Shown: one piece after another, positions 36,897 through 59,444 of the stretch | How the letters are laid out: every line of letters begins with the position of its first letter | How positions within the stretch are numbered: position 1 is the first letter of the stretch | Assembly (NCBI GenBank): GCA_947089425.1 | Contig: CAMUKG010000009.1 | Span: 775 to 64,774 of the forward strand | Source: an uncultured Clostridia bacterium | Lineage (GTDB): Bacteria; Bacillota; Clostridia; Christensenellales; Pumilibacteraceae | Direction of reading: 5' to 3' | Length of the DNA: 64,000 nt | Notes under the pieces: generated by a model | What the model was told of the DNA's origin: nothing | What the model saw: the letters and a program-made list of their open reading frames with translations, nothing else | Databases searched by the model: none | Made by a program: the position numbers and the translations under genes

Positions 36897-36910
36897 GTGA
36901 GGTGGAAAAA

Positions 36911-39900
36911 ATGAGTGCGAATAAGCAAGTCGGAAAGTTGAGTTTGTGGTGCATAACGGTTGTTCTTTTTGCGTGCGCTATTGCCGCAACTGTTACGTGC
37001 GCGCCTAAACAAAAGGCGTATGCGGCGCAAATTTCGGTAGAGGGTGCGGGCGACGCGTTCGTGTATTCCGAAGAGAGTTATGAAGCGGACGAAAGCTTTG
37101 CGTATGTTTCTACCGCTTGCTTCGAACGCGGAAATGCCGCAGGGCTTGTGTTCGGCGGCAAAGAAAACGACAGTTGTTTTGTTTTTAACGTAGACAGAGC
37201 GAACAACTTAGTAAAACTTATGTACTTTTACAATATGGCGGAAGATAAAAAAGTTGCGGTGCTTAAAGAAGAATACTATGTGGGAAGCAAGATAATGAAC
37301 GACGGCGAGAAAAGCTACGTGCAAAGCCGTACCGCAAATTTAGATAAAGTGTATTTGAAAGTTACCGTGAACGGCGACGGTACCGCCGAATTTTACGCCG
37401 ACGGAATACGCCGTTTTGCGTTCGTGGACGGAAGCAAACCTGCCGCCGAAATAAATTTGAATTCTTTTAAGCTCGAAGACGAAACTCCGATACGATATGA
37501 CGGCGGACTTTTGGGATATAATTGTTTTAATGCAAAAGTGAGTTTTACCGACACGCTTATAGGCAAAATGGATTACGGATATTACGGAGAGTTATATCGC
37601 AATCAATATCACTTTTCGCAATTTGCGCATTGGAACAACGACCCTAACGGATTGGTGTATTACAACGGATATTATCATTTATATTTTCAACACAATCCTT
37701 ACGGCAATACATGGGATGCAATGCACTGGGGACACGCGCGCAGCACAGATTTGGTGCATTGGGAACTGCTGCCCATAGCTTTGGTGCCCGACCGTGATTT
37801 ATCTGTCGACGTAGGCGCAATGTGGTCGGGTAGCGCAAGAGTTTATCATAAAGGCGACAGCGGCGTAATAGACGGCTATAATTGGTTTGACGCTACCGAT
37901 AAGCAAAAAGGCGACGCTCTCGGTTTAATAGCGTATTACACCCGTTTCGATAATGGAGGCAACAGACATCAAATTTTAGCGTATTCCACCGATGGCGGAC
38001 TTAGTTGGAACAAACGCGATAATATTAAAAGTACGGTATCTCTCGATTTGCAAGGCAATCCCGTAAACGGGGGATCGTGGCGCGACCCGAAAATATTCGA
38101 TATATCCGCTCTCAACGGGGTTGGCGATTACAAATGGGGAATGGCGCTTACCGATATGGAAGACAATACGTTGTTCTTCCTCAAATCCAAAAATCTTGTG
38201 AGTTGGGAACATGCGGGAAGTTATTTCGTTTATCGCCCCGAATGCCCCGACGTGTTTACGCTGTCTACCGACGACGAAACGGAACATACCGTAATAACGT
38301 TTACTTCGCGTTACTACGTAGTGTGCGATTTGGCTTACGAAAACGGCAAAATCGTAATGAAAGAGCCTAAGGCGGATAATCCCGCCACAATCGAAAGATT
38401 GGATAGAAACAGCGAATATTTGCAAATTATGGATTATGGCGTAGATTCGTATGCGGGGCAAACTTTTTACATCGACGCAAATTCCGACAGCGAATATAAA
38501 GGTGAATCGGTGGGGTTGAGCTGGTTTTCGGGTGTTCCGAACGACGATAAGTCGATAGAGAGCGGAGTTTTGCAGACGGCGCGTAAGATATGGAACGGCG
38601 GAGGCATGACCGTTCCGGTGGTTTACGGCTTACGAAAATCGGGCGAAAAATATGTTCTCACGTCTACGCCGATTACCGTAGACAACGAAAGCGATTTTGC
38701 CAAAACGCGACTTAACGGTATAGATGATATAAACGGGCATTGTTTCGAAATATCCGCAACGGTGCAAAACGACGGAGCCGAGCCTGTGTATTTCAGAATA
38801 AACGGCAGTGCGGACGGAACGCGCTATACCGAAATAGGCTGGAATTCGCAGGACGGATATTATGTGGACCGAACTTATACCGAAGACGCCGGCATAAACT
38901 TTCCTTTACCGAATTACGCATGCAAGTACGTTTCGAATATGGGTAAATCGAACAAGACGTTGGAATTTTACATTCTTTCTGACAACGGCGGCGTTGAAGT
39001 GTATTGCGACGGGTTCACCGTTCCGTTCTACATTTTAACGTTTGCTTCACCGTATTCGGTAAAAGCAACGTTTACTGCCGATTCGTCGGCAAACGCGGAA
39101 TTGACTGTAAACGAAATAGCGTCGGTGTGGCGCGGCGAGAGCGAGGAAACGCTAATCAATATTTCGGACATGCAAATAGATTTGGGGGCGGAACTCGGTC
39201 AGTCGCAAATCGTAACGGCATATGCGCAAGGAAAGGAAATTGAGTGGGAAGTCGTGGAAGGTACGGATATTATAGAAGTGAAGCCAACTTCTACGGGCGC
39301 CGAAATCATAGGCAAAAAGGCGGGCTCGGCACGCGTAAAAGTTTCTGCGGGATTGAGCAGCCGAACAATAGACGTAACGGTTCACAGCGGAAAGGCGGAA
39401 AGCGATTTTACTTTTACTACCGACGGTATAGTGTCGGGTAGGTGGTATTATAGCGGCAACTCGCTTATAGGCGAGCAATCGGGCGGCGACGGATTTATTC
39501 TCGCAAACGAGAGCGGCGGAGACTTTACTTATACCGCGCAATTCGATTTGGGAAGCGGAGCGGCCGCCGCGCTTGTGTTCAGAGCTACCGCCGAAAACGG
39601 CAAACTCACGAGCTACCTAATTGCGAATTACGACAATAATTCCAAGATAGTTAAGCTGTGGTCGCAAAACGGAGAGCTCGCTAACGTTCCCGCCGGAAAT
39701 CCGAATATCGAAAATCTTGTGCTTACGGCGGAAACCAAAGGCAAAAACGTGAAAGTGTATCTTAACGGAAACAAGCTTATAGACTGTGTCGTACGCGATA
39801 CCGACCCCGTAAGCGGCAAATTCGGTCTTAACGTATGCGCGACGCGCGCGGCATTTTCGTTGATTACCGTGCAAAAGAGCGAATACGGTTATTCGGGTAG

Positions 39901-40525
39901 CGGCGATTTTGTAATAAAGAGCAGCGTGGAACAGCAAGCTTTGGAAATAGTGAATACCACTCTCGGCAATACGGCTCTTTCGCAAGGTCAGTATGAAACG
40001 GTAGGACGCGAAATAAGAATAAAGCAGAGTTATATCGAATTATTGCCGTCGGCGGGTGAATACAAGTTTGTTATTTACGGTTCCGCGTTTACGTTTACGG
40101 CAAAAGTAATCGTGGAAAGCATACCGCAAACCGAACTTGTCGCCGTTACGGTTGACGAGGGAATAAACGCAACGATATGGCTCGGTAACAGTAACGTTCA
40201 ATACGTGAAAGTGAACGGCGCGGAGCTCGACGCCGGTTTATACAAAATATACGGTTATGTGCTTACGGTTATGCCCGACGCCTTTGAAATAGGAGAAAAC
40301 ACCGTGTCTGTCAACGATACGCAAGTTACGACGGTTACGGTTCGAGAAGTGCCTAAAAATGCGGTTTTAAGCGGCGGCGAGAGCAAAAAGTCGAACGTCG
40401 GTTTGATTGTGGGGCTTAGCGTGGGAATTCCCGTTCCGATTATAGCGACGGCTGTCGTTGCGGTGGTATTGATTTGGCGCAAAAAGAAATCGGCAAACAA
40501 AAACGACTCGGAGAAAAAGGAGTAA
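36911..40525 (+). CDS. Secreted, C-terminally membrane-anchored multidomain GH32 exo-beta-fructosidase/levanase-like enzyme
   Basis: Signal peptide; WNNDPNG, WSGSA, WRDP, ECPD; CBM66-like modules on both sides of the catalytic domain; Ig-like and X2-like segments; terminal TM plus RKKK. Confidence 0.85.
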   Translation: MSANKQVGKLSLWCITVVLFACAIAATVTCAPKQKAYAAQISVEGAGDAFVYSEESYEADESFAYVSTACFERGNAAGLVFGGKENDSCFVFNVDRANNLVKLMYFYNMAEDKKVAVLKEEYYVGSKIMNDGEKSYVQSRTANLDKVYLKVTVNGDGTAEFYADGIRRFAFVDGSKPAAEINLNSFKLEDETPIRYDGGLLGYNCFNAKVSFTDTLIGKMDYGYYGELYRNQYHFSQFAHWNNDPNGLVYYNGYYHLYFQHNPYGNTWDAMHWGHARSTDLVHWELLPIALVPDRDLSVDVGAMWSGSARVYHKGDSGVIDGYNWFDATDKQKGDALGLIAYYTRFDNGGNRHQILAYSTDGGLSWNKRDNIKSTVSLDLQGNPVNGGSWRDPKIFDISALNGVGDYKWGMALTDMEDNTLFFLKSKNLVSWEHAGSYFVYRPECPDVFTLSTDDETEHTVITFTSRYYVVCDLAYENGKIVMKEPKADNPATIERLDRNSEYLQIMDYGVDSYAGQTFYIDANSDSEYKGESVGLSWFSGVPNDDKSIESGVLQTARKIWNGGGMTVPVVYGLRKSGEKYVLTSTPITVDNESDFAKTRLNGIDDINGHCFEISATVQNDGAEPVYFRINGSADGTRYTEIGWNSQDGYYVDRTYTEDAGINFPLPNYACKYVSNMGKSNKTLEFYILSDNGGVEVYCDGFTVPFYILTFASPYSVKATFTADSSANAELTVNEIASVWRGESEETLINISDMQIDLGAELGQSQIVTAYAQGKEIEWEVVEGTDIIEVKPTSTGAEIIGKKAGSARVKVSAGLSSRTIDVTVHSGKAESDFTFTTDGIVSGRWYYSGNSLIGEQSGGDGFILANESGGDFTYTAQFDLGSGAAAALVFRATAENGKLTSYLIANYDNNSKIVKLWSQNGELANVPAGNPNIENLVLTAETKGKNVKVYLNGNKLIDCVVRDTDPVSGKFGLNVCATRAAFSLITVQKSEYGYSGSGDFVIKSSVEQQALEIVNTTLGNTALSQGQYETVGREIRIKQSYIELLPSAGEYKFVIYGSAFTFTAKVIVESIPQTELVAVTVDEGINATIWLGNSNVQYVKVNGAELDAGLYKIYGYVLTVMPDAFEIGENTVSVNDTQVTTVTVREVPKNAVLSGGESKKSNVGLIVGLSVGIPVPIIATAVVAVVLIWRKKKSANKNDSEKKE

Positions 40526-40530
40526 GAAAT

Positions 40531-41499
40531 ATGGCGGCAACAATATCGGACGTTGCAAAATGCGCGGGCGTTGGCATAGGCACCGTGTCGCGCGTGTTGA
40601 ACGGCGGGAAATCGGTAAAAGCGGACAAACGTCAGGCAATCATGCGAGCCATAGAGGAGCTAAACTACACTCCCAACAGTATGGCTAAACGGTTACGCAA
40701 ACAAAAAAACGGTGTAATTGCGCTTATGGTGCCTATTGTAAATCATCCGTTTTTCGCACAATTTACCGATTGTATCGAGCAGGAGGCGGATAAATTCGGT
40801 TATTCGATTTTATTGGTTGCGTCTCAACAACATGCGGAAAAAGAGAATGAAATATTGGATAGAATAGAACGCCGAGAAGTGGATGGCGCAATATTCGTTA
40901 CGCATCATAATCATACGCCCGAGCGTCTTAAAAGTTATCCGCTTGTTTCGGTAGACAGACATCTGGCGGAGGGCGTGGCTTACGTTACGAGCAACAATTA
41001 CGAATCCACAAAAAACGCCGTTGAGTATCTTATAGAGCGAGGTTGTAAAAACATAGGGTATGTAGGCACGAAGCCTCTTGTCGATTCCGAAGTATTATTG
41101 CGCGAAAAAGCGTATCGCGACGTTATGAACGCGCATAATCTTCCGCTCTCGGCGCTCAATGAAGTTGCGGTGCACGGTGATGAAATAACGCTTGTTAACG
41201 AGTTCTTCAAGAAGTTTCCAGACTTAGACGGTGTGTTCGCTTCGGGATACAGCGCCGCTCAATGCGTATGTGAAGTCGCTTTACAAAGCGGAAGAAAAAT
41301 ACCCGACGACCTTCAAATGGTGGCTTACGACGGCAATTTCAAGCAGTGGGGCGGTCGGAACATTACTTGCGTGCAGCAACCAATTGAGAAAATGGCTCAA
41401 TCGGCAGTCAGGCTGTTGATAGACAGAATAAACGGTAAAACCGTGCCTATCCGTACGGTTCACGAAACTAAGTTAATATTAGGTGACACAACCAAGTAA
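40531..41499 (+). CDS. LacI-family transcriptional repressor
   Basis: TISDVAKCAGVGIGTVSRVLN HTH, YTPNSMAKRL hinge, periplasmic-binding-protein fold. Confidence 0.92.
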   Translation: MAATISDVAKCAGVGIGTVSRVLNGGKSVKADKRQAIMRAIEELNYTPNSMAKRLRKQKNGVIALMVPIVNHPFFAQFTDCIEQEADKFGYSILLVASQQHAEKENEILDRIERREVDGAIFVTHHNHTPERLKSYPLVSVDRHLAEGVAYVTSNNYESTKNAVEYLIERGCKNIGYVGTKPLVDSEVLLREKAYRDVMNAHNLPLSALNEVAVHGDEITLVNEFFKKFPDLDGVFASGYSAAQCVCEVALQSGRKIPDDLQMVAYDGNFKQWGGRNITCVQQPIEKMAQSAVRLLIDRINGKTVPIRTVHETKLILGDTTK

Positions 41500-41524: not shown

Positions 41525-42862
41525 ATGAAAGGTAAAAGGTTTTTAGTGAAAGCGGCGGTTCTTATGCTGGCTGTGTGCTGCATTGTGAGTTTTGCGGCTT
41601 GCGGCGGCGGAGGTAAGGGCGAAGAAGTTGAAAGCAGAACGGATAAATACGGTAACACTCTTGTTACCATTATGGTGCACAAAGATTCTTCTACCAAAGA
41701 AGGCAAAGCATACCAAAAGTGCGTTGACGACTTTAACGCCGCATATAAAAGTAAAAACATTAAAGCGCAAATTACGTTTGTGGCGCAAACGTCGGGTGTT
41801 GACCAGTATGAGGCTACCATAAGCAATTTATACAGGCAAGGCGGCGGTAAGCTGTACGACATTATCTCGTTTGACGCGCCCAAATGCGCGGGCTACGCGA
41901 AGAGCGGAATTTTGTACGATATGACGAGCGCTCTCGGCGACTATACCGACAACTTTATTTCCGAATCGGTGAACCGTTATGACGGAAAAGTTTACGGATT
42001 GCCCATTCAGGAATCGAGCGCAGGCTTTTATTATAACAAAGTCGTGCTAAACGCCGCCGGCATTACCGATGGAGAAATTGCTGGTTACCAAACAAACGGT
42101 TGGACTTTCGAGCAATTTAAAGCGGTGTGCGAAAAGCTGAAAGCAGCGGGAAAGACGGCGGTGGATATGCAACTTGCCGCCGGCGGCGAAACTTGCACCT
42201 ATTTGCTGTATCCGCTCGGAAATGCGGCGGGCGGCGAGTATGTTTCGGCTGACGGAAAAACCGCAGACGGGTATTTGAACAGCGCGCAAACAAAGGAAGG
42301 ATTTCAATTCATAAAAGACTGCATAGACAACGGCTACACAAATTACCAAATAGACGGGAAGGCGTTCTTAACGGGTGACAGCGTGGGCATGTATTTATCT
42401 TCGGGTTGGACTATTCCCGACATAAAAGAGCAGTATAAAGATAACTTTACGGGCGGTTGGGGAATTTTGCCCTATCCTCATAAGTCGGGTAGCGATGCCG
42501 TTTCTGCTACGGGAAGTTGGAGCTTCGGCATTACCAACAACGGTATACGCAATAAGGATGCGGCGGTAGAACTTATTAAGTGGATGACGAGCGACGAGAG
42601 CGCAACCACCATAACGAACGCTACGGGCATGATAGCGGCGAAATCTACTATAAACAAAAATTACGAAGCTACTTCGCCCGAAGGAGTGTTGTATAATCAG
42701 CTTGTAAATTCGGGCAAAGCTCGTCCGTCGATGGGTGCGTATGCCGATTTTTCAACCGAGTTCAATCTTATCATAACGGGATTACGCACCGACAGCGTAG
42801 AAAAAGTGCTTAACGAACACACCACGTCTTTGCAAACAAAAATAAACCGTAACGACAGGTAA
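41525..42862 (+). CDS. Sugar ABC transporter solute-binding lipoprotein
   Basis: Lipobox FAAC; DGKVYGLP, FYYNK, TGSWSFGI; adjacent permeases. Confidence 0.88.
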   Translation: MKGKRFLVKAAVLMLAVCCIVSFAACGGGGKGEEVESRTDKYGNTLVTIMVHKDSSTKEGKAYQKCVDDFNAAYKSKNIKAQITFVAQTSGVDQYEATISNLYRQGGGKLYDIISFDAPKCAGYAKSGILYDMTSALGDYTDNFISESVNRYDGKVYGLPIQESSAGFYYNKVVLNAAGITDGEIAGYQTNGWTFEQFKAVCEKLKAAGKTAVDMQLAAGGETCTYLLYPLGNAAGGEYVSADGKTADGYLNSAQTKEGFQFIKDCIDNGYTNYQIDGKAFLTGDSVGMYLSSGWTIPDIKEQYKDNFTGGWGILPYPHKSGSDAVSATGSWSFGITNNGIRNKDAAVELIKWMTSDESATTITNATGMIAAKSTINKNYEATSPEGVLYNQLVNSGKARPSMGAYADFSTEFNLIITGLRTDSVEKVLNEHTTSLQTKINRNDR

Positions 42863-42887
42863 TTACGGTTGTAACAAGGGGAGTAAA

Positions 42888-43859
42888 ATGCTAATAGGTG
42901 CTTTGTCGGTTTTTATCGCTATGGCAGCCGCGTTTGGAACGGTGGCTGCGGTAGACGTTGTAAAAGCCAAAAAATACAAAGAAAGATATAGAATAAGAGA
43001 GTGCGGAACGGCTTATCTTATGTTGTTGCCCGCTGTGGCTTTGGCGTTTATTTTCATAGTGTTGCCCATAGTTTATTCGCTCGGGTATGCGTTCACCGAT
43101 TTTCACATGTATTACCCCAACGATATAAAGTTTATAGGGCTTGACAATTTTAAAGAGTTGTTCAGAGAAATCGGCGTAAAGGGCGAATTGTATCACGCAA
43201 TCATAAACACCGCTATATTCGTAGTGTGCGTTGTGCCGTTGCAAATCGGACTTGCGCTCGTGCTCGCTCTGTTTACCAACCGCAAGAAAAAAGGCGTGAA
43301 GATTTTCAAAGTCTGTTTTTTCACGCCGGTAGTAATCTCTCTTACGGTTACGTCGTTTTTGTGGGTGCAAATTCTCGCGCCCAACGCATCGGGGCTTTTG
43401 AATTCTTTTTTAAGCGTTTTCGGTGCGGAGCCTATCGACTTTTTGGCTCAGGAAAAAACGGCGATGCTGTGGATTGTGCTGATGAGCGCCTGGCAGGGTT
43501 GCGGGTATCAAATGCTTATATTCAGTTCGGGGCTTACGAATATACGCGACGATTTATATGAAGCGGCGTCGTTGGACGGAGCGGGTTCTTGGCAAAAGTT
43601 CTTACATATTACGCTTCCCGGTTTGCGCTCTACTTTGCTGTATATCACAATTACCGTATTTGTGGGAGCGTGCAGAGTTATGATACAGCCGATGTTGATG
43701 ACTGATTATAAATTGCATACGGTTACGCTCAGCTATTATATGTATCAACTCGGTTACGGTTCCAAACTCGTAGGACTGTCGTCGGCCGTCGCTCTCATGA
43801 TGACGGTGGTAATAGGCATTATAACTCTGCTTCAACGCAAGTTTTTGAAGGAGGATTGA
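42888..43859 (+). CDS. Carbohydrate ABC transporter permease 1
   Basis: FIGLDNF; DLYEAASLDGAGSWQKFLHITLP EAA motif. Confidence 0.92.
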   Translation: MLIGALSVFIAMAAAFGTVAAVDVVKAKKYKERYRIRECGTAYLMLLPAVALAFIFIVLPIVYSLGYAFTDFHMYYPNDIKFIGLDNFKELFREIGVKGELYHAIINTAIFVVCVVPLQIGLALVLALFTNRKKKGVKIFKVCFFTPVVISLTVTSFLWVQILAPNASGLLNSFLSVFGAEPIDFLAQEKTAMLWIVLMSAWQGCGYQMLIFSSGLTNIRDDLYEAASLDGAGSWQKFLHITLPGLRSTLLYITITVFVGACRVMIQPMLMTDYKLHTVTLSYYMYQLGYGSKLVGLSSAVALMMTVVIGIITLLQRKFLKED

Positions 43860-43860
43860 T

Positions 43861-44772
43861 ATGACGAATACCTCTTACGCAATAGGTGCGGTAACGAAGA
43901 CTGTAAATAAGCCAGCAAACGGAAAAAAGAAAGCGTTAACCGTTATATGGTATGTATGCGGCGCGTTGTTTTCGTTGCTGTTTATTTTGCCCGTTATTTA
44001 TATGCTTGCCGTATCGACAAAAAGTCAGCTTGCCGCCGACAGAGCAAGGGGCATAGCAATGTTCTTTCCCGACTTTATGAATTTGAACACCTTTTTCAGC
44101 AATTATTCTAAGGTGTTTACCGCTTACGGAATTTGGCGCAACGCGCTTAACAGTTTCATGTATGCCGCTGTGGCAATCGTTTGCAATATCTTGGTGAACG
44201 GACTTGCGGGCTATGCTATATCGAAATTGAATTTTCCGGGCAAAAAGTTCTTCACGTTTATTATTTTATTCCTAATTATAGTGCCTGTTGAAACGTCTAT
44301 TATTCCTATGTATATGGTGGTTACCGAGCTTCTCGGGCTGCAAGACCGCGCCACAGTGCTCGGAGTTATACTTCCGTCGTGCATAAGCATATTCAACATA
44401 TTCCTGTTTATACAGTTCTTTCAAGGCATACCCGGCGGATATGAAGAGGCGGCAAGGATAGACGGCGCAAGCAGACTCAAAATATTTTTCAGCATTATAT
44501 TGCCGCTGAGCAAACCCATTGTGGCAACGGTAGCCGTGTTTTGTTTTATCGGCGTGTGGAACGACTATCTTTGGCCTATGATGCTGCTTACGCCGTATCC
44601 CAATATGATGCCGATACAAGCTGTTTTGCAAACCATACAGAATATAGAGGGTGTTACTACGGGTGAAATTATGGCGTCGTTGGTTGTTACCAGTATACCC
44701 ATTTTTGTGATTTATGTAGTTGCGCAAAAGTATATAGTGCAAGGGTTCGGTTCGGCGGGACTGAAAATGTAA
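43861..44772 (+). CDS. Carbohydrate ABC transporter permease 2
   Basis: YEEAARIDGAS EAA motif, WNDYLWP. Confidence 0.92.
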   Translation: MTNTSYAIGAVTKTVNKPANGKKKALTVIWYVCGALFSLLFILPVIYMLAVSTKSQLAADRARGIAMFFPDFMNLNTFFSNYSKVFTAYGIWRNALNSFMYAAVAIVCNILVNGLAGYAISKLNFPGKKFFTFIILFLIIVPVETSIIPMYMVVTELLGLQDRATVLGVILPSCISIFNIFLFIQFFQGIPGGYEEAARIDGASRLKIFFSIILPLSKPIVATVAVFCFIGVWNDYLWPMMLLTPYPNMMPIQAVLQTIQNIEGVTTGEIMASLVVTSIPIFVIYVVAQKYIVQGFGSAGLKM

Positions 44773-44792: not shown

Positions 44793-47324
44793 ATGAAGAA
44801 CACAAAAAAAATAGGAGCGTTTGTTGCGGCGCTGGCGATTGCCGTAACCGGGTTCGGTTTTAGCGGTTGCACGAAAAATGAAGTTAAAACTACATTGCTT
44901 GCAAAATACACGTTTGAAAACGTGAGCGGCACTCAGGTAGTGAATGAAGCCGACGGTACGCGCGACAATATAAGCTACGTTTTCAATGCCGAAAACGCCG
45001 ACTATTTGGTGAAAGAACCTTCCGAACCGCTTGTTAAGCGGGGGGGGGTGAAAGGTAGCTGTTTATATATGGACGGGTTTTCTACGTATGTGGAAAACGG
45101 TAAGTTTTCAACGCCCGAAACCGCCGTTACGCTTTCGGCGTGGGTAGCGCCTCGCGTATTCGAGAATTTGCCTTATTACGGCGACCAGTCGGAAGCGAAA
45201 GGACAGCCGCGTTTAACGTCGGTAATCAACAAGGGCAATATAGAAATCGGGCAAGGTTTTTTGCTGGGGTACGGAAAACTCGGTATGTGGGGATTGCAAC
45301 TTGCGCTTCACAATTCCGATAACGATACGAATTCCGTTATCGCTTTTTACGACCCCGTAAACGCTTTACCGCTTTACGAGTGGTCGCATATTGCCGCTAC
45401 GTATAATGGCGATACGGGCTATGTAGCTCTGTTTTTCAACGGCGAGAAAGCATACGAGGACATCATTCCCGAGCTCGTAAATACCGAGATAATAGAGAGC
45501 AACGAGCCATTGTATGTAGGCGCGTACTGTGCTCCCGTTACCGAGTTTTCGATAAAAAGACAAATGCCGTCGGGGCTCATCGACGAAGTGGCGATTTACG
45601 GCGAAAGCTTAACGCCCAAACGGGTGCGCGAATTATTTGAGGACTGTGCGCCGAACGGAGTAATACCCAAGTTGGATTACGAGCAAATTGCCTTAGATTC
45701 TTCGGTGTATGAGGGCGACAGATATCGTCCGCAATATCACGCAATACCGCCTGCGGTTTGGATGAACGAGCCTCATTCGCCGTTTTATTACAAAGGCAGA
45801 TACCATGTGTTTTATCAGTGTAATCCTTCGGGACCGTACTGGTCTCAAATACGTTGGGGGCATATCGTAAGCGACGATATGATACATTGGAAATACGTCA
45901 AAGACGCCGTAGTGCCCACTGCGGGAATTTGCCCCGAAGGCGTATGGACGGGCGGCGCTTGCATAGGTCCGGACGGAACGCCGTGGCTTGCGATTACCGC
46001 AGGCACAAACTTATACGGCAATCCGAATCACGGAGGGCAAAACGTGGCGTTTGCCCACGCGGCAGACCCCGACGACCCCGACCTTACCGAATGGATTGTG
46101 GAAGATACTCTCACGATTACGCAGCCCAACGACAACAGTATGGGCGAGCGAGAGCAATTCCGCGACCCGTTTGTTTGGTACGATGACGAAACGAGCCGGT
46201 ATTTTATGCTTGTAAGCACATCCGTACCGGGTGCCGGCGGTTCCGCAAACGTGTATACTTCGCAAAATATGCACGAGTGGGAACATCACGGCTATATTTA
46301 CGAATGTCCTTATCCCGATTACGACATAGCGGGCGAGCACTGGGAGTGCGTCGTGCTTTTGCCTATATCCACAAAAGACGGCAAAACCCAAAAGTATATA
46401 CTCTTTGATTGCCCGCAGTACGCCCGCGGTGAAAATCCGCCGCAAGTGGAATGCTATTATTGGATAGGAACGTTTGATAAGAATGCGTGCAGATTTATTC
46501 CCGACAGTCACGAACCTAAACTTTTCGACGTGGGCACGGCTACGTTTACGGGTCAAAACGGATATTGTTTTTTAACCGACGAACAAAAAGCTGCCGGACT
46601 TACTTATGAGCAAGGACGCACCGTGCTGTATTCGATTGCGCAGGGCAAAGACGCAGGCACGGGGCTTAATTACTATGCGGGTTGGGCGCACAACTTTTCG
46701 TTCCCGCTCGAACTATGGCTTTCGGATGACGGAAACGAAGTGATACGCGAGCCAATAAAAGAGATAGAAAGTTTGTACGGCAAAGTGGAATACGAGTATA
46801 GCGGCGACGGCATGAGTGCCGCGCAGATAAATTCCGCAATAGGCGAAATTCGCGGCGACACCATAAAAATCGACGCAAAGATAACTCTTGCGCCCGCAGC
46901 CGAAAACTATGCGGCAAAAATAGGAGTAAGATATAATCCGAATACTTCGGCGGAAGGCACCGAACGCACTTTTATAGTATTTTCAAACGGAAAAGTGGAA
47001 GTGGACAGATTGCAATCCACGTTGCGACCGGGAGTGAATACGCAGTCGCTTCACAGCTGGGCTTTCGGCGACGCGCGCGAATTTGACGTTACCGTTCTTT
47101 TGGACCGCTCTATGCTCGAAGTTTATATAAACGGAGTAATGAGCGCTACAATGCGCATATATCCGCATTACGGAGATTCCGACTATATACGGGTATTTGA
47201 CGAAAATGCGGGACTGCTTATAAAAGAATTCAAAATTACGCAAATGAAGAGCGCTTATACTGCCGACGGAAGCATTACGCCGCCGTATTACGGCAATACG
47301 GGTAATTTGGCGGATAAAGCATGA
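44793..47324 (+). CDS. Lipoprotein GH32 with N-terminal LamG domain and WMNE motif (endo-inulinase / CFTase-like)
   Basis: Lipobox FSGC; LamG (TLSAWVAPR..WSHIAATY..FFNGE..GLIDEV); HAIPPAVWMNEPHSP at 45759, FRDP, WECVV, AGWAHNFSFP. Confidence 0.8.
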   Translation: MKNTKKIGAFVAALAIAVTGFGFSGCTKNEVKTTLLAKYTFENVSGTQVVNEADGTRDNISYVFNAENADYLVKEPSEPLVKRGGVKGSCLYMDGFSTYVENGKFSTPETAVTLSAWVAPRVFENLPYYGDQSEAKGQPRLTSVINKGNIEIGQGFLLGYGKLGMWGLQLALHNSDNDTNSVIAFYDPVNALPLYEWSHIAATYNGDTGYVALFFNGEKAYEDIIPELVNTEIIESNEPLYVGAYCAPVTEFSIKRQMPSGLIDEVAIYGESLTPKRVRELFEDCAPNGVIPKLDYEQIALDSSVYEGDRYRPQYHAIPPAVWMNEPHSPFYYKGRYHVFYQCNPSGPYWSQIRWGHIVSDDMIHWKYVKDAVVPTAGICPEGVWTGGACIGPDGTPWLAITAGTNLYGNPNHGGQNVAFAHAADPDDPDLTEWIVEDTLTITQPNDNSMGEREQFRDPFVWYDDETSRYFMLVSTSVPGAGGSANVYTSQNMHEWEHHGYIYECPYPDYDIAGEHWECVVLLPISTKDGKTQKYILFDCPQYARGENPPQVECYYWIGTFDKNACRFIPDSHEPKLFDVGTATFTGQNGYCFLTDEQKAAGLTYEQGRTVLYSIAQGKDAGTGLNYYAGWAHNFSFPLELWLSDDGNEVIREPIKEIESLYGKVEYEYSGDGMSAAQINSAIGEIRGDTIKIDAKITLAPAAENYAAKIGVRYNPNTSAEGTERTFIVFSNGKVEVDRLQSTLRPGVNTQSLHSWAFGDAREFDVTVLLDRSMLEVYINGVMSATMRIYPHYGDSDYIRVFDENAGLLIKEFKITQMKSAYTADGSITPPYYGNTGNLADKA

Positions 47325-47335
47325 GGAGGGAAGTT

Positions 47336-49909
47336 ATGCGTAAAGCAGTTAATAAAAAATTATTTGCGGCTCTTATAATTGCCGTAATGGCGGCGGCGTC
47401 GCTTGTATTTACGGCTTGCGGCGACAAACCGTCCGTTGCGCAAGAACTGCCCGTAGAAGTAATAAACGGCGGATTCGAAACTGCCGATTTAAGCGGTTGG
47501 ATAGTAGAAAGCGGCGAGGCGTTCGACGACGACAGCGTGTCTTCGCGCAAAACATTTTCGTACGCTTACGATTCGGCGCACAAACAAATTCCGATAAATC
47601 AGACGGGAAACTGGTATCTTGACGGCAAAGGCTACGACGGTAACCGCAGTCACGGGTATACGGGGAGCATACGCTCCAAGAACTTTATGTTAAGCGGCGA
47701 CGGAACCGTTTCGGTTAAGCTCGCGGGCGGCGCGCTCGTGGTGCGCAAAGGAGAAAACGCGCCTCTTAAAAGCAAAGAGAAAATTTGCTACGTGGGCGTG
47801 TACACCGCCGAAAACGATAAGCTTGTGCACAAATTTACCAACTCATATTTTTTCGAGCATACCGAAAACTATGTAAGCGTTGAAGACTATGAAAACGGCA
47901 CTTGCTGTACCGATAATTTTTATCGTTATACCGCAGATTTATCGGAATACGTCGGAAAAGAAATGTACATTCGCATAGTGGATAACGATACCTACGTGTA
48001 TTACGGTTATATTAGCGTTGACGATATTCGCGTGGGCGATGCGGAAGAACAGAGCGAGGGCGTGTACTTCGAAAAGTCGCGCGAGTTTGTGCCTGACGCG
48101 GAAGCGCCGAACAAATACGAAGTAAAAAACGGCGGGTTCGAAACGGGTTCGCTTGCGGGATGGACGGTAGTAAGCGGCGGAGCTTTCTCGCATGACGGGG
48201 TAAATTCGAACGCATATTGGTGGAACGAAAATATACCGTATTGTCGCGACGGCAAATATCATTACGGTTTTTATAAGCCTACCGAAACGGGAGTGTTGCG
48301 TTCAAGCGAGTTTGTGCTTGGCGGCAGCGGATATATAAGTTATAAGTTGGGCGGTTGCCGCAACAACGAGCTTACGTATTTGCGTTTTATGGTAAAGAAC
48401 GGCGATACAGCCGAAGAAGTGGCTCGCTATTCCAACTTCAAATTTTGGAACTATCAATTCCCGTACGTGCAGAACGGGTTGCGTATGCTCAATCTTGTGC
48501 AGTATTACGCCGACTTTTCCGCATATCTCGGCAGAACTATGTATATAGAAGTCGTAGACGAAAACACTTCGTCCGATGACACCGACTGCATAACGCTCGA
48601 CAGCGTGCAAACGTATTGGGAGAGTAAGCCGCAGTGGTACAACAGCATAGCTTTTGAGGCAAAAGTCAATCCCGATTCGATAGATATCGAACCCGACAGT
48701 CCGTATCAGCTTAAAAACGGCACGTTTGAAACGGGTGATTTGACGGGTTGGACGCTTGACGGCAACATAGGCGTGGTGTCTTCCGATTACGGTTGGTGGA
48801 ACGAGAATTTCCCGTACAATAAAAAAGGAAGATACCTGTTTACGGGTATAGCGCACGAAGGCGAAAAGGGAACGCTTACGAGCGACGCGTTCGAACTCGG
48901 CGGCATAGGAGTGATTTCGTTCCGTATGGGCGGCGGCGCAAATCCCAAACAAATTTATGTTTCGGTACTTAACGCCGACAACGGCGAGGAACTCGCGCGG
49001 TTTGCCAACGTCAAATTCTCCGATAAGAATACTGCGGGAATCAACGTAAACAGCTTTTTGGCGAATATGGTGCAGTATAAAGTCGATTTGACCGAGCTTG
49101 GAATTGCGCTCGGCACGAACATTAAGTTGCAAGTGGTGGATAACGCGGTAGCCTACTGGGGACTTGTTACGGTTGACAGCTTTATCACGTACTACGAAAA
49201 TGAAGAGCAAGTGCCTAAAAAAGCTTTTACGGCTGAAAATATAAAACCGGAGACCGACGCCGTATTCGGAGAAAACGATTCTCATCAAATCCTTAACGGC
49301 AATTTCGAAACGGGCGATTTGACGGGGTGGAGCGTAACGAGCGGCAACGTTAATTCAAACATAGCCGTTCAAGCCGCGACTACGTTTTGGAACGAAGACC
49401 TTCCGTATAACAAAGGCGGCATGATGCATTTTGACGGGTGGAAAGCCAACGGCGACGAAGCGGCATCGTATTCGTTGCGCTCCGAAGATTTTACGCTCGG
49501 AGGCAGCGGCGTGATATCGTTTAAGATGGGCGGTAAAACGGCTGAACTCAAAGTGTATAAAGCGGACGGGACTTTGATTGCCGCTTATGCCAATACGGCG
49601 TTTGCCGATATAAATTTCCCCAAAGTTGACGACGGTTGCCGCCTTGCAACCATGACTACGTTCGTTGCCGATTTGAGCGAATACAAAGGGCAGGAGCTTT
49701 ATGTGGAAATTTGCGACCGACCGTTTAAAGACGGCGAAACGGGTTGGGGCGTTGCATTCTTCGATGAAATCATTACTTATTACAAAACCGCGCCAGTCGT
49801 GGAAGAAATGTTCGATACCGTCGAACTTAATTCGCAAACGGCTTTGGGCGGCGTTGCAAAAAGTTACGATATTTCTTGGGAAGTTGCGGTGAATACCGTA
49901 AAAAAATAA
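47336..49909 (+). CDS. Non-catalytic lipoprotein with four tandem CBM38-like modules
   Basis: Lipobox FTAC; NGxFETxxLxGW repeats at about 47465, 48128, 48716 and 49295, each with L.S..F.L.G.G..S.K.GG-type and YIEVVD-type motifs; no GH32 catalytic motif. Confidence 0.7.
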   Translation: MRKAVNKKLFAALIIAVMAAASLVFTACGDKPSVAQELPVEVINGGFETADLSGWIVESGEAFDDDSVSSRKTFSYAYDSAHKQIPINQTGNWYLDGKGYDGNRSHGYTGSIRSKNFMLSGDGTVSVKLAGGALVVRKGENAPLKSKEKICYVGVYTAENDKLVHKFTNSYFFEHTENYVSVEDYENGTCCTDNFYRYTADLSEYVGKEMYIRIVDNDTYVYYGYISVDDIRVGDAEEQSEGVYFEKSREFVPDAEAPNKYEVKNGGFETGSLAGWTVVSGGAFSHDGVNSNAYWWNENIPYCRDGKYHYGFYKPTETGVLRSSEFVLGGSGYISYKLGGCRNNELTYLRFMVKNGDTAEEVARYSNFKFWNYQFPYVQNGLRMLNLVQYYADFSAYLGRTMYIEVVDENTSSDDTDCITLDSVQTYWESKPQWYNSIAFEAKVNPDSIDIEPDSPYQLKNGTFETGDLTGWTLDGNIGVVSSDYGWWNENFPYNKKGRYLFTGIAHEGEKGTLTSDAFELGGIGVISFRMGGGANPKQIYVSVLNADNGEELARFANVKFSDKNTAGINVNSFLANMVQYKVDLTELGIALGTNIKLQVVDNAVAYWGLVTVDSFITYYENEEQVPKKAFTAENIKPETDAVFGENDSHQILNGNFETGDLTGWSVTSGNVNSNIAVQAATTFWNEDLPYNKGGMMHFDGWKANGDEAASYSLRSEDFTLGGSGVISFKMGGKTAELKVYKADGTLIAAYANTAFADINFPKVDDGCRLATMTTFVADLSEYKGQELYVEICDRPFKDGETGWGVAFFDEIITYYKTAPVVEEMFDTVELNSQTALGGVAKSYDISWEVAVNTVKK

Positions 49910-49929
49910 TTGAATGAGAGGGTAGAAAA

Positions 49930-52725
49930 ATGAAAAGAGCAATTAAAAGACTGTCGGTTATTGTGATGTCGCTTGTAATCGTGTTTTCGGTTGCCGTATT
50001 TGTTGCGGCTTGCGGTGACAAAAACAACGACAATCCCCCTGCAAACGAACAAACCGAACCGGTAAAAATCAAAGACGGCGAGGCGATAAGTCTTACGGTA
50101 GAGGAAGAGTGTAAGAGCATAATCATAGCCGATTATGTTACGGTGAACGGAAATAACGTAACGGTTGCGTCATCGGCTCCCGATATAGCGACGGCTACGC
50201 TTACGGACGGAGTAGTTACGGTAAACGCCGTTAAAAAAGGAACGGCAACGGTAACGGTTACGTGCGGCAATGTGGAAATTGCGTTTGCTGTTACGGTGTC
50301 CGAAAAGTCTGTTGCTCCGCCTGCGACGGTCGAGTATACCGTTTCGCTCAACGGCGAGGAAAGCACGGTTGAAGAAAACGGAATTTTCACGTTGCCCGAA
50401 TCCTTTACTCCCGAAGATGAAGATTTCGAGTTTGTACGTTGGAATATAGTGGGCGACCATGAAATAAGCGGTAATAAAGTGACCGTTCTCGGCGATTTAA
50501 CGATTACCGCCGAAACGCTCAGGAAAGGGGCGGAGAAAATCAAAGACGGCAATTCGCTTACTTTCACAGTCGGCGACGCCGCAAAGACTGTAACCGTAGC
50601 GGAATATATAACGACGCACGGCAATGACGTTTCTGCGAATTCCGATACGCCCGCCGTCGCAACGGCTACGCTTACGGACGGAGTAGTTACGGTAAACGCC
50701 GTTAAAAAAGGAACGGCAACGATAACGGTTACGTGCGGCAATGTGGAAATTACGTTTGCGGTCACGGTTGGCGATGCTACGCAAATTACGACTCCGTCGG
50801 TAAAGAATGCCGAAGTCGTAATTTCGGAAACGCACGATTTGTATTCGGGCGATTATACCGTTGATTTGGCGGAGAATATCGAACTTGCGAACCTTATAAC
50901 GGGTTATATGGTAAATTCGGAGTCTGTTGACGGTACAACGTATTCTATAAGCGGCGACACGTACACGCAAACGCCCACGCTTGTTACTTTAAACGTAACG
51001 GCGACTTACAATGGCGGCTCTGTAAACTATGTATACAAGGTAAATATAATCGATACTACGGCATACCGTATACGCAACGGCGGATTCGACGACGGACTCG
51101 ACGGTTGGCAAAAGATAGGGCAAATCGGCAATATCAGCGAAGCTACGGCGTATTGGACTAACGACAACGACGGTAACGGATATTCATATAACGCCGACGG
51201 CAAATTCTTTTCGGCATACGAACCTTCCGACAGGTTTGAAAGCAATATAGGAGCGCTTATCAGTTCGCCGTTTAAAGTGTCGCAAAACGGAATTATAACG
51301 TTTAAACTCGGCGGCGCAAAGCACGATATATTTGTTGACGTAGTAGATACCGAAAACGGCGAAATAATCGCGCGTTACGGCAACAGCGCGTGGGCGGAGA
51401 CTACCGACAATTTAAAGAGCGGTTGCACGCTTATCGCCTATAAAGCGACGTTACCCGCAAGCGCGGTTGAAAAGACGGTGTACATTCGCGTTATAGATAT
51501 GGCGCAATCCGATTACGGCGTACTGTTTTGCGATTCGTTCGTTACGTATTACGAGAGCGCGCCCGAGAGCGGTATCGACGCGGTGGATATAACCGACCGC
51601 CCCGCGACCGTATACGAATTATATAACGGCGGATTCGAGCAGGATATGAAAGGTTGGGTTATTTCGGGCGGAGATATCGGTGCCGTGACTGCCGATAAAG
51701 GTTGTTTTAACAACGGTGACCCTAACGACACTACTAAGGCTTACGGTCAGGAAGACTCAAAACTTTTCTCGTTTTGGAGTTGGAACGAAGCGGAAAACAA
51801 AGAATACAATCGCGAGGGCAATCTCGGCACGCTTACAAGCAATATGTTTGTTTTAAAGCCGAATAAATTCGTATCGTTCAAGTTTGGCGGCGGAAAAAAC
51901 CGTAACGTATTTATAGAACTCGTTAATGCCGAAAGCGGAACGGTTATCGCGATATTCCGTAATGACAACGTTGTTGAGGGAAATGAAAGCGCGCTTGTAA
52001 GTTATAGTTATGCGCCTACAACAGCCGAGCTTTCCGCCGATGCTCTGTGTTACTTCCGCGTAGTAGACAACGCCGTAACCGATTGGGGATGCTTTACCGC
52101 CGACGCGTTTAAAGTTAACCTCGACAGTGCGCCTACGGATAGCGCTCTCGCGGTTAATTGTTTGAGCGAATATAAGTCGTTGATAAACGGCAGTTTCGAA
52201 GACGGCAATCTTAACGGGTGGACCGCTCCCGCCGGAAATGCTCTCGGTGCGGTGGTGAATACCGAAAAATCGGAGAGTTGGTATCAGACCAACGAAAGCA
52301 CGAAAGACGGTAACTGGTTATTTACGTTCTACATTCCGAACTGGGGAGATAGTAACAATAAAGAAAAAGGAACGGGCGTTATTCGTTCGAGCGCGTTTAT
52401 CCTTGATAAGAACGGCATTGTATCTTTCCGTTTCGGCGCGGCGCATAATAGGGAGGTATATATAAACGTTTACACAACGGGCGGAAGACTTTTGGCGACG
52501 TTCCGTAACAATGCCTTTACCGAAGCTACCGTTATGGTACAGTATTACTATCAATTTGATAATGCCGAAGAACTGTCTTGCTACTTTGAGATTGTAGATA
52601 ATGCGGAAAAGGATTACGGGTGCATTGTTATGGACGACTTCCGCGTAAACCTCGAAGCTGCGCCTAACGGAGCGATTCTCGGCAGTTCGCTTACAAAAGC
52701 GGAACGAGACCAAGCAAATAATTAA
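49930..52725 (+). CDS. Non-catalytic lipoprotein: two Ig-like (Big_2) domains, linker domains and three CBM38-like modules
   Basis: Lipobox VAAC; duplicated ATATLTDGVVTVNAVKKGTAT; NGGF/NGSF modules at about 51076, 51625 and 52186. Confidence 0.7.
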   Translation: MKRAIKRLSVIVMSLVIVFSVAVFVAACGDKNNDNPPANEQTEPVKIKDGEAISLTVEEECKSIIIADYVTVNGNNVTVASSAPDIATATLTDGVVTVNAVKKGTATVTVTCGNVEIAFAVTVSEKSVAPPATVEYTVSLNGEESTVEENGIFTLPESFTPEDEDFEFVRWNIVGDHEISGNKVTVLGDLTITAETLRKGAEKIKDGNSLTFTVGDAAKTVTVAEYITTHGNDVSANSDTPAVATATLTDGVVTVNAVKKGTATITVTCGNVEITFAVTVGDATQITTPSVKNAEVVISETHDLYSGDYTVDLAENIELANLITGYMVNSESVDGTTYSISGDTYTQTPTLVTLNVTATYNGGSVNYVYKVNIIDTTAYRIRNGGFDDGLDGWQKIGQIGNISEATAYWTNDNDGNGYSYNADGKFFSAYEPSDRFESNIGALISSPFKVSQNGIITFKLGGAKHDIFVDVVDTENGEIIARYGNSAWAETTDNLKSGCTLIAYKATLPASAVEKTVYIRVIDMAQSDYGVLFCDSFVTYYESAPESGIDAVDITDRPATVYELYNGGFEQDMKGWVISGGDIGAVTADKGCFNNGDPNDTTKAYGQEDSKLFSFWSWNEAENKEYNREGNLGTLTSNMFVLKPNKFVSFKFGGGKNRNVFIELVNAESGTVIAIFRNDNVVEGNESALVSYSYAPTTAELSADALCYFRVVDNAVTDWGCFTADAFKVNLDSAPTDSALAVNCLSEYKSLINGSFEDGNLNGWTAPAGNALGAVVNTEKSESWYQTNESTKDGNWLFTFYIPNWGDSNNKEKGTGVIRSSAFILDKNGIVSFRFGAAHNREVYINVYTTGGRLLATFRNNAFTEATVMVQYYYQFDNAEELSCYFEIVDNAEKDYGCIVMDDFRVNLEAAPNGAILGSSLTKAERDQANN
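50191..50751 (+). repeat. 90-bp intragenic direct repeat (50191-50280 and 50662-50751)
   Basis: 89/90 identical by manual alignment; encodes Ig-like beta-strands. Confidence 0.9.
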
Positions 52726-52745: not shown

Positions 52746-54089
52746 ATGGCATATGAACAAATAAGACCTGTATTTCATATTACGGGCGGAAACGGTTGGA
52801 TAAACGACCCCAACGGATTGGTTAAATTTAACGGCGAATATCATGTATTCTATCAGTATTATGCCGAAGCGACTTATTGGGGGCCCATGCATTGGGGACA
52901 CGTTAAAAGCAAGGATTTGACGCATTGGGAAAGACTCCCCGTTGCAATCCGTCCCGACGAACAGGACGACGGTTGCTTTTCGGGTAGCGCCATAGTTCAC
53001 AACGGCAAAATGTGGCTTATGTACACAAGCTACAAAAAAAACGACGGCGGAGTAAGCGAACGGCAACTGCAAGCGCTTGCTTCGTCGGACGACGGCGTAT
53101 ACTTCTTTAAGCATGGCATAGTGATAGGCGAGGACGATTTGCCCGAAGGATACTGTGCTTGGAGTTTCCGCGACCCTAAGCTTTTGCGTGTAAACGATAT
53201 GTTTTACTGTTTTGTTGCCGCCAAAAAGCGCGAGGGGAATGGCAGAATTCTTTTATACAAATCCGTTGATTTGTTTAAGTGGACTTTTGTGTGCGACGTA
53301 ACCGACCGCGATAACGGAGGCAAAATGGTTGAGTGTCCCGATTACTGTACTCAACTCGGACTGCTTACATACAGCGAACAGTTTCAACCGCACGAGGGGA
53401 ATACGCACCTAAATATCCATAGTGCGTTCGCTCAATTCGGTACGTTTGACTTTAATAAACCTTTTGTTCCCGACAGTAAGCGGCAAATTATCGATTACGG
53501 GTTTGATTTTTACGCTTCGCAGTCGTTTGCCGAAGAGCCGATTATGATAGGCTGGTTGGGCATGTGGGACAGAAACTATCCTTGCGCAAAATACGGCTTT
53601 GCCGGTATGCTTACCGTTCCGCGTCGTTTGCAAAGAGTGGGAGACGAGCTCGTTCAAACGCCTATATATACCGCTAAAAAGGTGTGCGAAAAGTCGGTGA
53701 AAGGCAAATTGACAGACAATATATCGGTGGGCGCGGTTCGTTTCGAGCTCAACGGTTTGCGAGCGTTCGATTTGAAAATGCGCAAGTCGGGCGACGAATA
53801 TGCCGAATTTACGCTTTCGGGCAACGAGTGGGTGTTTAACCGCTCTCGTTGCGGTGCGCAAATTGTGGGGGCGGAGGAAGACGACGATTCGCTTGCGGGA
53901 ATTCGCCGTATGCCTTATCGCTACGCTCAAACCGATACCGTTGAAATCGTCTTCGACTTATTTTCGGTTGAAATTTTCGTGAACGGTAAAGCTCTGTCGT
54001 CTACGCTGTATCCCGCCCCCTCCGCCGACGGACTCGAACTGACTGTTGATTGCAACTCTTGTACCTATACTCGCTACGAAATCGAATAA
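52746..54089 (+). CDS. Cytoplasmic GH32 beta-fructofuranosidase / sucrose-6-phosphate hydrolase-like
   Basis: WINDPNG, CFSGSA, FRDP, ECPD, DYGFDFYA; no signal peptide. Confidence 0.88.
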   Translation: MAYEQIRPVFHITGGNGWINDPNGLVKFNGEYHVFYQYYAEATYWGPMHWGHVKSKDLTHWERLPVAIRPDEQDDGCFSGSAIVHNGKMWLMYTSYKKNDGGVSERQLQALASSDDGVYFFKHGIVIGEDDLPEGYCAWSFRDPKLLRVNDMFYCFVAAKKREGNGRILLYKSVDLFKWTFVCDVTDRDNGGKMVECPDYCTQLGLLTYSEQFQPHEGNTHLNIHSAFAQFGTFDFNKPFVPDSKRQIIDYGFDFYASQSFAEEPIMIGWLGMWDRNYPCAKYGFAGMLTVPRRLQRVGDELVQTPIYTAKKVCEKSVKGKLTDNISVGAVRFELNGLRAFDLKMRKSGDEYAEFTLSGNEWVFNRSRCGAQIVGAEEDDDSLAGIRRMPYRYAQTDTVEIVFDLFSVEIFVNGKALSSTLYPAPSADGLELTVDCNSCTYTRYEIE

Positions 54090-54318: not shown

Positions 54319-54368
54319 ATTTTGAAAACGCGCCTCGAAAGTTTCGTTTGGCTTTCGGGGCGCGTTTT
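54280..54368 (+). repeat. Copy 2 of the ~90-bp LRR 3'-end/terminator element
   Basis: 35/40 identity to 4357-4396, followed by an identical AACGCGCCTCGAAAGTTT and a matching 3' arm. Confidence 0.85.
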
Positions 54369-55859: not shown

Positions 55860-55962
55860 TAAGGGGGAATCCTCCGAATTTTAATTGAAAAAAATATTAT
55901 AGCACGGCTTGCGCCGTGCCGTCAACAGGCTGTAACGCTTTTTTATAATTTGAGTGCGTTTT

Positions 55963-57156: not shown

Positions 57157-57226
57157 TGTGGCGAACGTAATCTCCTTTTTTGCAAAATGTGAAAGTACAA
57201 TTTAAAGCGATTGCGCTTTCAAAGAA

Positions 57227-58105: not shown

Positions 58106-58130
58106 CGTCGTTGTTCCTTATTTGTTTTAT

Positions 58131-59358: not shown

Positions 59359-59444
59359 AAAAATATAAATTATTCCTAAGCATTATGATAAAAAACTGCC
59401 TTGCCTTTTATATAGCGTGAGATATACAAAACGAGGTGAGAGTC

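Follow-up and report, generated by a model that had tools for sequence, protein, structure and literature searches.

Two adjacent genes, here called A and B, lie on a 64,000-nucleotide stretch of DNA (the window) from an uncultured Clostridia bacterium, a relative of Pumilibacter. They encode putative lipoproteins carrying four and three copies, respectively, of a module related to carbohydrate-binding module family 38 (CBM38) of the cycloinulo-oligosaccharide fructanotransferases (CFTases). We consider it likely that A and B are non-catalytic, multivalent fructan-capture proteins of the cell surface that act in trans. The best explanation would have both proteins lipid-anchored on the outer face of the cytoplasmic membrane, as part of a fructan-utilisation operon of Pumilibacteraceae-like gut Clostridia. 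This reading builds on homology, domain anatomy, predicted fold, lipoboxes, synteny and low-level RNA contigs, all of which were observed; the ligand, the surface exposure, the cooperation with enzymes and the product of the neighbouring enzyme GH32b are what we infer.

Modules of genes A and B

The first-pass annotation of the window had described seven modules of about 200 residues, four in one protein and three in the next, with a list of shared motifs. The number and arrangement were borne out (about 190 residues each, Table 1), with NG.F[ED] module starts at residues 49, 270, 466 and 659 of A and at residues 383, 566 and 753 of B. The motifs were reproduced by the consensus of a seven-module alignment (about 195 columns, 25-34% identity to the first module), which reads NGGFETGDL.GW ... 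W(W)N...PYN ... G.LRS..F.L.G.G.ISFK.GG ... V.Y.ADL ... VVDN...D.G....D.F.TY.E. Residues N5, G6, F8, G15, W16, S75, F78, N130, D177 and D190 (numbered as in the first sequence) were common to the seven aligned modules. Compared with one another by BLASTP, the modules shared 24-38% identity over about 180 residues.

The open reading frame (ORF) of gene A comprises 862 residues when read from position 47321 and 857 from the second Met at 47336, the latter start being more likely and in line with an identical database copy (P0001) of 857 residues. Both proteins had been called lipoproteins, in agreement with the lipoboxes recognised by sequence in A (VFTA-C) and B (VAA-C). All 60 aligned orthologues kept the lipobox Cys, and 115 of 120 homologues had a Cys in a lipobox-like setting. 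In the AlphaFold2 (AF2) model of A, a helix spans residues 7-22 and a disordered linker follows the presumed lipid-modified Cys. The proposal that one array sits on an Ig-like stalk agreed with Pfam matches above the cut-off in the N-terminal part of B, where Big_2 (28.1 bits, cut-off 22.8) and Big-like (26.0 bits) domains were found within the first 378 residues.

A profile built from the seven modules was run against 1.84 billion cluster representatives and matched 1674 clusters, 321 of them below 1e-30. A first homologue search with A had returned only unnamed Clostridia proteins; the CFTases were reached from the representative search, through its matches fused to glycoside hydrolase family 32 (GH32) and a further search with one of these, P0136. 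The latter returned CFTases named as such at source, including P0308 (BAA24360.1/O52973, the CFTase of Niallia circulans) and P0347 (a Paenibacillus polymyxa CFTase cluster with AAL82574.1 among its members). Another cluster matched by P0136 includes Paenibacillus sp. LX16, for which CFTase activity has been measured (PMC4835578).

The module profile matched the N. circulans CFTase at residues 58-242 and 243-428 (1e-58 each) and the P. polymyxa CFTase at residues 76-260 (1e-62) and, more weakly, 261-423, with the C-terminal repeats of both being matched at 5e-20. When compared with the CFTase N-terminal repeats (N1 and N2) by BLASTP, A2-A4 showed 40-46% identity, A1 31-34% and B1-B3 27-37%. 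The identity of A2 to the N1 repeats was 44-46% (E 1e-50 to 1e-51), and A2-A4 were more alike to the CFTase N-terminal repeats than to one another. The E-values against these CFTase repeats of other organisms (1e-17 to 1e-51) ruled out a chance repeat.

The definition of CBM38 goes back to residues 32-389 of the 1333-residue Paenibacillus macerans CFTase, a region that forms two beta-sandwiches in an AF2 model (PMC10076258). The same source, citing Lee et al. 2004, reports that this region binds inulin and levan (PMC10076258). The dbCAN layout published for a Defluviitalea enzyme, CBM38x3+GH32+CBM38 (PMC7355431), was also the one given by the module profile in P0136 and P0308. The first-pass annotation had stated that very similar repeats form the CBM38 region of CFTases, and both the profile (1e-58 to 1e-62) and BLASTP upheld this on the two named CFTases tested, those of N. 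circulans and P. polymyxa. Judged by their sequences, the A and B modules and the CBM38 repeats of CFTases are true homologues.

The residues of the WW..PY loop in modules 2-4 were invariant or nearly so in 60 orthologues, and the loop is conserved in the CFTase repeats too. It was missing from module 1 in all 112 four-module orthologues of A. This loop is a candidate binding site, with A1 and the modules of B being candidates for a different specificity.

No catalytic motif had been noticed in either protein, and likewise no catalytic domain was found when A and B were scanned with Pfam and NCBIfam, which returned only sub-threshold matches to CBM_4_9, LTD and NTTRR-F1, plus Big_2 in B. Since CBM38 is absent from those libraries, the null result says nothing against CBM38. 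The AF2 model of A2, built with 34 diverse module sequences, was an all-beta jelly-roll beta-sandwich (predicted local distance difference test, pLDDT, 87.6; predicted template modelling score, pTM, 0.85), the type of fold predicted for CBM38. Its best Foldseek match in the PDB was a porphyran-binding CBM (8xmz, E 3e-5, template modelling (TM) score 0.72 on the target), followed by CBM16, CBM27, CBM4, MAM and gingipain adhesin domains (the CBM entries including 2zey, 1pmj and 2y64). No enzyme fold for A2 was found in the Foldseek matches and no jelly-roll glycosidase in the top 50, the matches to enzyme or toxin entries spanning a small part of the chain (target TM 0.09-0.21). Full-length A was modelled as four beta-sandwiches (pLDDT 86.9, pTM 0.58), which matched mainly tandem jelly-roll arrays in the PDB, with no catalytic domain of a glycosidase among the matches. 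When A and the module profile were searched against PDB sequences, only the N-terminal motif of 8xmz was matched, and a homologue of the CBM38-type module appears to be absent from the PDB.

These models bear on the idea that A and/or B hide a catalytic site, for example as a jelly-roll glycanase or lyase with fructans as substrate. All modules keep two Asp, one Ser and one Asn unchanged, and the jelly-roll fold does occur in some glycosidase families. However, the invariant residues would suit a site with a structural or metal-binding role, as seen in CBM4/22-like folds, the single-module matches were to CBMs, MAM and adhesin domains, and on real GH32 enzymes these modules occur as accessory repeats of varying number. 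A cryptic enzyme is thus extremely improbable, and we have rejected it on the fold and the accessory use of the modules.

The neighbouring GH32b enzyme and the fructan locus

Gene A is preceded by GH32b, predicted to encode a lipoprotein (Table 1). GH32b aligned over its full length with CFTase cores (34-36% identity over about 750-820 residues, E 1e-134 to 1e-136), with its best PDB relative at 2.5e-34 only. Its residues 323-329 hold WMNEPH where the usual GH32 nucleophile motif is WMNDPNG. The set WMNE(P/A/S)H, FRDPFVWYD and WE(C/L) was common to GH32b, the CFTases (WMNEAH) and the other aligned fused cores, with the fused core P0136 deviating (WTNEAH); the two other GH32 enzymes of the locus, GH32a and GH32c, retain the canonical NDP. 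GH32b is thus of the CFTase-core type, with a LamG-like region, a GH32 core and the motif set. There were no CBM38 repeats within the GH32b polypeptide; they sit in the next two genes. The claim that the binding arrays are detached from the catalytic gene next door therefore holds, as they are encoded directly after a CFTase-core GH32 lipoprotein with the WMNE.H signature.

We have broken down the module family on the best 150 of the 1674 cluster representatives. Module-only arrays accounted for 56 of the 150, and in 12 the modules were fused to a GH32b-like core (Paenibacillus, Cohnella, Caldicellulosiruptor, Halalkalibacter and others). These fusions provide a Rosetta-stone link that supports the fructan reading. 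The Paenibacillus and Niallia cores carry in cis the same modules as A and B; the latter would serve GH32b, and GH32a as well, in trans.

The kinship of GH32b raises the question of a true split CFTase, in which GH32b would cyclise fructan at the cell surface, A and B would be its detached, docking binding subunits, and the cyclofructans would be imported and hydrolysed by GH32c. By analogy, this would be a private-good route resembling cyclodextrin-mediated starch use. The full-length alignment to CFTase cores (E ~1e-135) and the motifs in common fit this idea, and among the relatives recovered for the core, only CFTases have been characterised experimentally (PMC4835578). Moreover, a fused Paenibacillus protein (P0241, core plus three modules) mirrors the order of GH32b and A, and its first post-core module was the nearest to A1 among the modules compared (35%, 1e-28). 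Yet GH32b was about equally distant (35-36%) from the CFTases and from every fused core aligned, most of these being uncharacterised and none CFTase-named, and the GH32b-type clade may include endo-inulinases. In addition, GH32b is without the C-terminal repeat found after the core in every fused relative examined, and none of the A and B modules is of the C-terminal CFTase type. We therefore regard a split CFTase as unlikely. It is quite unlikely that widespread gut Clostridia (Pumilibacteraceae or "CAG-552"-like) run such an enzyme, with CBM38-array lipoproteins as helpers in trans, turning dietary inulin into cyclofructans usable only by cells with the matching ATP-binding cassette (ABC) importer and cytoplasmic GH32. 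If true, the cyclofructan route would be the fructan counterpart of the cyclodextrin pathway, the first such in the gut.

GH32b, A and B belong to a nine-gene locus, whose features are collected in Table 1. The intergenic gaps between positions 44772 and 52746 are 11-20 nt, and a hairpin 236 nt past GH32c is the only strong terminator-like site in the region from 36 to 55 kb. Given these short gaps and the single hairpin, the locus looks like one operon. A promoter scan gave results no better than those of shuffled sequence.

Table 1. Coordinates of the features in and around the A/B locus of the window
Feature	Position	Strand	Basis and remarks
GH32a, secreted, C-terminal membrane anchor, CBM66 homologue	36902..40525	+	Pfam; PDB sequence search
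LacI-family regulator	40474..41499	+	
Sugar ABC importer	41525..44772	+	Lipoprotein substrate-binding protein 41525-42862; permeases 42888-43859 and 43861-44772
GH32b, lipoprotein: LamG-like region, GH32 propeller, GH32 C-domain	44793..47324	+	Pfam; 843 aa; WMNEPH, FRDPFVW, WEC
Gene A, four-module CBM38-type lipoprotein	47336..49909	+	ORF and AF2; upstream ATG 47321 as alternative start
A, predicted signal peptide and lipobox ...LVFTA-C	47336..47419	+	Sequence; Cys codon 47417-47419
Module A1, divergent subtype	47453..48115	+	About 14-aa insertion; without WW..PY loop
Module A2	48116..48709	+	WWNENIPY loop; of the seven modules nearest to the CFTase N1 repeat
Module A3	48704..49288	+	WWNENFPY loop; 40-43% identity to CFTase N1/N2
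Module A4	49283..49870	+	FWNEDLPY loop; 43-46% identity to CFTase N1/N2
Gene B, lipoprotein: Ig-like N-terminal region, three CBM38-type modules	49930..52725	+	931 aa
B, predicted signal peptide and lipobox ...FVAA-C	49930..50013	+	Sequence; Cys codon 50011-50013
B, Ig-like "stalk"	50014..51063	+	Two Big_2-type repeats (near aa 73-118 and 215-280), separated and followed by unassigned beta-rich stretches
Module B1	51064..51612	+	35-37% identity to CFTase N1/N2, E 1e-28 to 1e-31
Module B2	51613..52182	+	WW..PY loop diverged; 27-30% identity to CFTase repeats, E 1e-17 to 1e-20
Module B3	52171..52722	+	WW..PY loop diverged; 29-30% identity to CFTase repeats, E 1e-19 to 1e-22
GH32c, cytoplasmic beta-fructosidase	52746..54089	+	Without signal peptide; canonical WINDPNG
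Hairpin, 19 bp, GC-rich, then T-rich tail	54325..54368	+	Likely operon end

PDB sequence searches with GH32a matched exo-inulinases and, at E 1e-11, the CBM66 of SacC (4azz), the CBM66 homologue spanning residues 844-995 (nt 39431-39886). Instead of an LPXTG motif, the C-terminus of GH32a carries a hydrophobic anchor. Two different families of fructan-binding modules thus occur together in the locus, represented by the CBM66 homologue and the CBM38-type modules.

If A and B are surface fructan-capture proteins, as we think likely, the seven modules would form a multivalent array that binds beta-2,1 (inulin-type) fructan and retains it at the cell surface. Binding may occur through the conserved W-W-x-E-x-x-P-Y loop of A2-A4, and A1 and B1-B3, in which the loop has diverged, may recognise other fructan features. 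The polymer would then be cleaved by the co-anchored GH32b and by the membrane-anchored GH32a with its CBM66. The resulting oligosaccharides would be taken in by the ABC importer and their hydrolysis completed by the cytoplasmic GH32c, the whole being presumably under LacI control.

Downstream of the locus, the minus strand carries an arginine cluster (54912-59168) with argF (54912-55859), argD (55963-57156), argB (57227-58105) and argC (58131-59168). A 739-residue ORF at 59436-61655 has a signal-peptide/lipobox-like start (...ILGC) and, by eye, two N-terminal repeats of the "GYEFVGWSDG" type; it had no NCBIfam match.

Conservation of the locus and nature of the ligand

A conservation scan of one genome per GTDB species found 36 loci; apart from one in a cultured species, all were in Clostridia-type metagenome-assembled genomes (MAGs) of mouse, human and ruminant guts, a few of the records bearing other taxon labels. 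The order GH32b-A-B was seen in all 36 loci wherever flanks were present, and the full order GH32a-LacI-SBP-perm-perm-GH32b-A-B-GH32c (SBP, substrate-binding protein; perm, permease) was kept in every locus with enough flank. The three-gene block singled out by the first-pass annotation was thus found conserved in 36 genomes, within a nine-gene locus.

Among the 36 loci was that of the cultured Pumilibacter intestinalis CLA-AA-M10 (L002, NZ_CALPCH010000003.1 53251-75806), which holds the full nine-gene fructan locus with an A protein 79% identical to ours. The description of this species predicted starch as the only substrate used (10.1101/2022.03.07.483007). With the locus in its genome, a further nutrient niche can be predicted, although the protologue pointed to starch only.

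B-like genes occurred in 1-4 tandem copies per locus. In L003, L007, L013, L025, L031 and L033, downstream of the A orthologue, B-like genes had multiplied to 2-4 tandem paralogues with 24-43% identity to B, A being single-copy. The presence of tandem B paralogues beside a single-copy A suggests diversification of the B type. Scanning of 48 B-like members of the best 150 representatives revealed only Ig-like or FIVAR domains, except for one with a GDSL domain. The family also has giant relatives with up to 10 modules, namely P0121 (3900 aa), P0125 (3220 aa) and P0127 (2319 aa). The modules of P0121 are largely spaced by stretches of about 250 residues, and a Pfam scan of P0127, the one giant relative scanned, gave no match.

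The window sequence was present in mouse gut metagenomes. In one RNA-Seq run, contigs at least 99% identical to the window lay on A (49318-49550) and on B (52429-52602).

We have then considered whether the modules might bind a different glycan, from the diet or the host, or polymers of the bacterium's own wall, with A and B being adhesins or wall scaffolds that travel with the operon. In P0263 (834 aa), two modules are fused to a GH125 domain, and the first of them is 43% identical to A2. GH125 is a family of metal-independent alpha-mannosidases. Many relatives are long, Ig- or FIVAR-rich surface proteins without an enzyme, and A1 and the B modules are without the WW..PY loop, which would also fit a ligand other than fructan. 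On the other hand, the place of A and B between GH32b and GH32c is strictly kept in the 36 loci, and GH32 was the partner in 12 of the 13 catalytic fusions recognised in the top 150, in which most non-module regions were scanned in part. In these fusions, the link of the module to GH32 is dominant, not exclusive. Besides, the top identity of the modules is to CFTase repeats reported as inulin-binding (PMC10076258). Taken together, we regard a non-fructan ligand as very unlikely.

Several points nevertheless weigh against fructan capture by A and B as we propose it. Given the GH125 fusion of P0263, the module type is not tied to fructan everywhere, which makes the ligand specificity of the A and B modules uncertain. 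The WW..PY loop has diverged in the modules of B. The founding P. macerans sequence (AAG47946.1), absent from the cluster members listed, was represented in our comparisons by its N. circulans and P. polymyxa homologues. The N-terminus of a lipoprotein in a monoderm is fixed at the membrane, which bears on how far beyond the wall the modules would reach. Finally, the RNA contigs on A and B are thin (depth 2-5) and may stem from DNA carry-over.

Comparison with known systems

Inulin-type fructans are the most used prebiotics and, to our knowledge, their capture at the cell surface has been worked out only in Bacteroidota, with SusD and surface glycan-binding proteins (SGBPs). If fructan binding by A and B holds true, these would be the first non-catalytic surface binding proteins specific to fructan to be described in Firmicutes, and CBM38 would gain a role outside enzymes. 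The locus occurs in at least 36 gut species (mouse, human, ruminant) of a poorly known, slow-growing lineage. It also extends the CFTase-type GH32, known until now as an industrial enzyme from soil bacilli, to anaerobes of the gut.

SusE, SusF and the SGBP BT1761 of the levan polysaccharide utilisation locus are non-catalytic lipoproteins with tandem CBM-like beta-sandwiches, credited with retaining the polymer at the surface. A and B resemble them as predicted non-catalytic lipoprotein arrays encoded beside enzymes for the same glycan and a transporter. There is, however, no sequence relationship, and the A/B locus has no SusC/D and its host no outer membrane, uptake being assigned to an ABC importer. 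A generic, weak Foldseek match of full-length A to BT SGBP-B (7kwb) was found at E 1e-4 and rank 46. The label "SusE/F-like" given by the first-pass annotation can therefore stand as a functional analogy only; homology to SusE/F was ruled out by the lack of both a sequence relationship and SusC/D.

Within Firmicutes, Sas6 and Sas20 of Ruminococcus bromii, whose substrate is starch, and the CBMs of cellulosomal scaffoldins follow the same concept: they are non-catalytic, multi-CBM and displayed at the surface, and assist enzymes in trans. They differ from A and B in their CBM families and substrates and in their anchoring, which relies on dockerin/cohesin or sortase, not on a lipobox. No fructan example of stand-alone Gram-positive CBM proteins was found in the literature searched. 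CBM66 of Bacillus subtilis SacC is fructan-binding, as proposed for the A and B modules, and has a homologue in GH32a of the same locus; in contrast, it adopts a LamG/ConA-like fold, binds levan chain ends and is unrelated to these modules.

The closest parallel is found in the CBM38 repeats of the P. macerans, P. polymyxa and N. circulans CFTases, homologous tandem modules of about 185 residues that accompany a LamG plus GH32 core of the WMNE type. They share with A and B the motifs NG/P.FETGDL.GW, WW.E..PY, GSG.ISFKLGG and VVD....WG...D.F. In the CFTases, whose hosts are aerobic soil bacilli, the modules lie inside the enzyme, whereas in the anaerobic gut Clostridia bacterium studied here they form two separate putative lipoproteins (4 + 3) encoded downstream of the enzyme. 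The first-pass annotation knew of no description of this arrangement in gut Clostridia, and we have found none in the searchable literature. The CBM38 family and the idea of non-catalytic multi-CBM surface proteins are known, and there is no new principle unless the cyclofructan reading is true. What is new, on the sequence evidence, are CBM38 arrays set out as separate predicted lipoproteins beside a module-less CFTase-type GH32 and conserved in a lineage of gut Clostridia.

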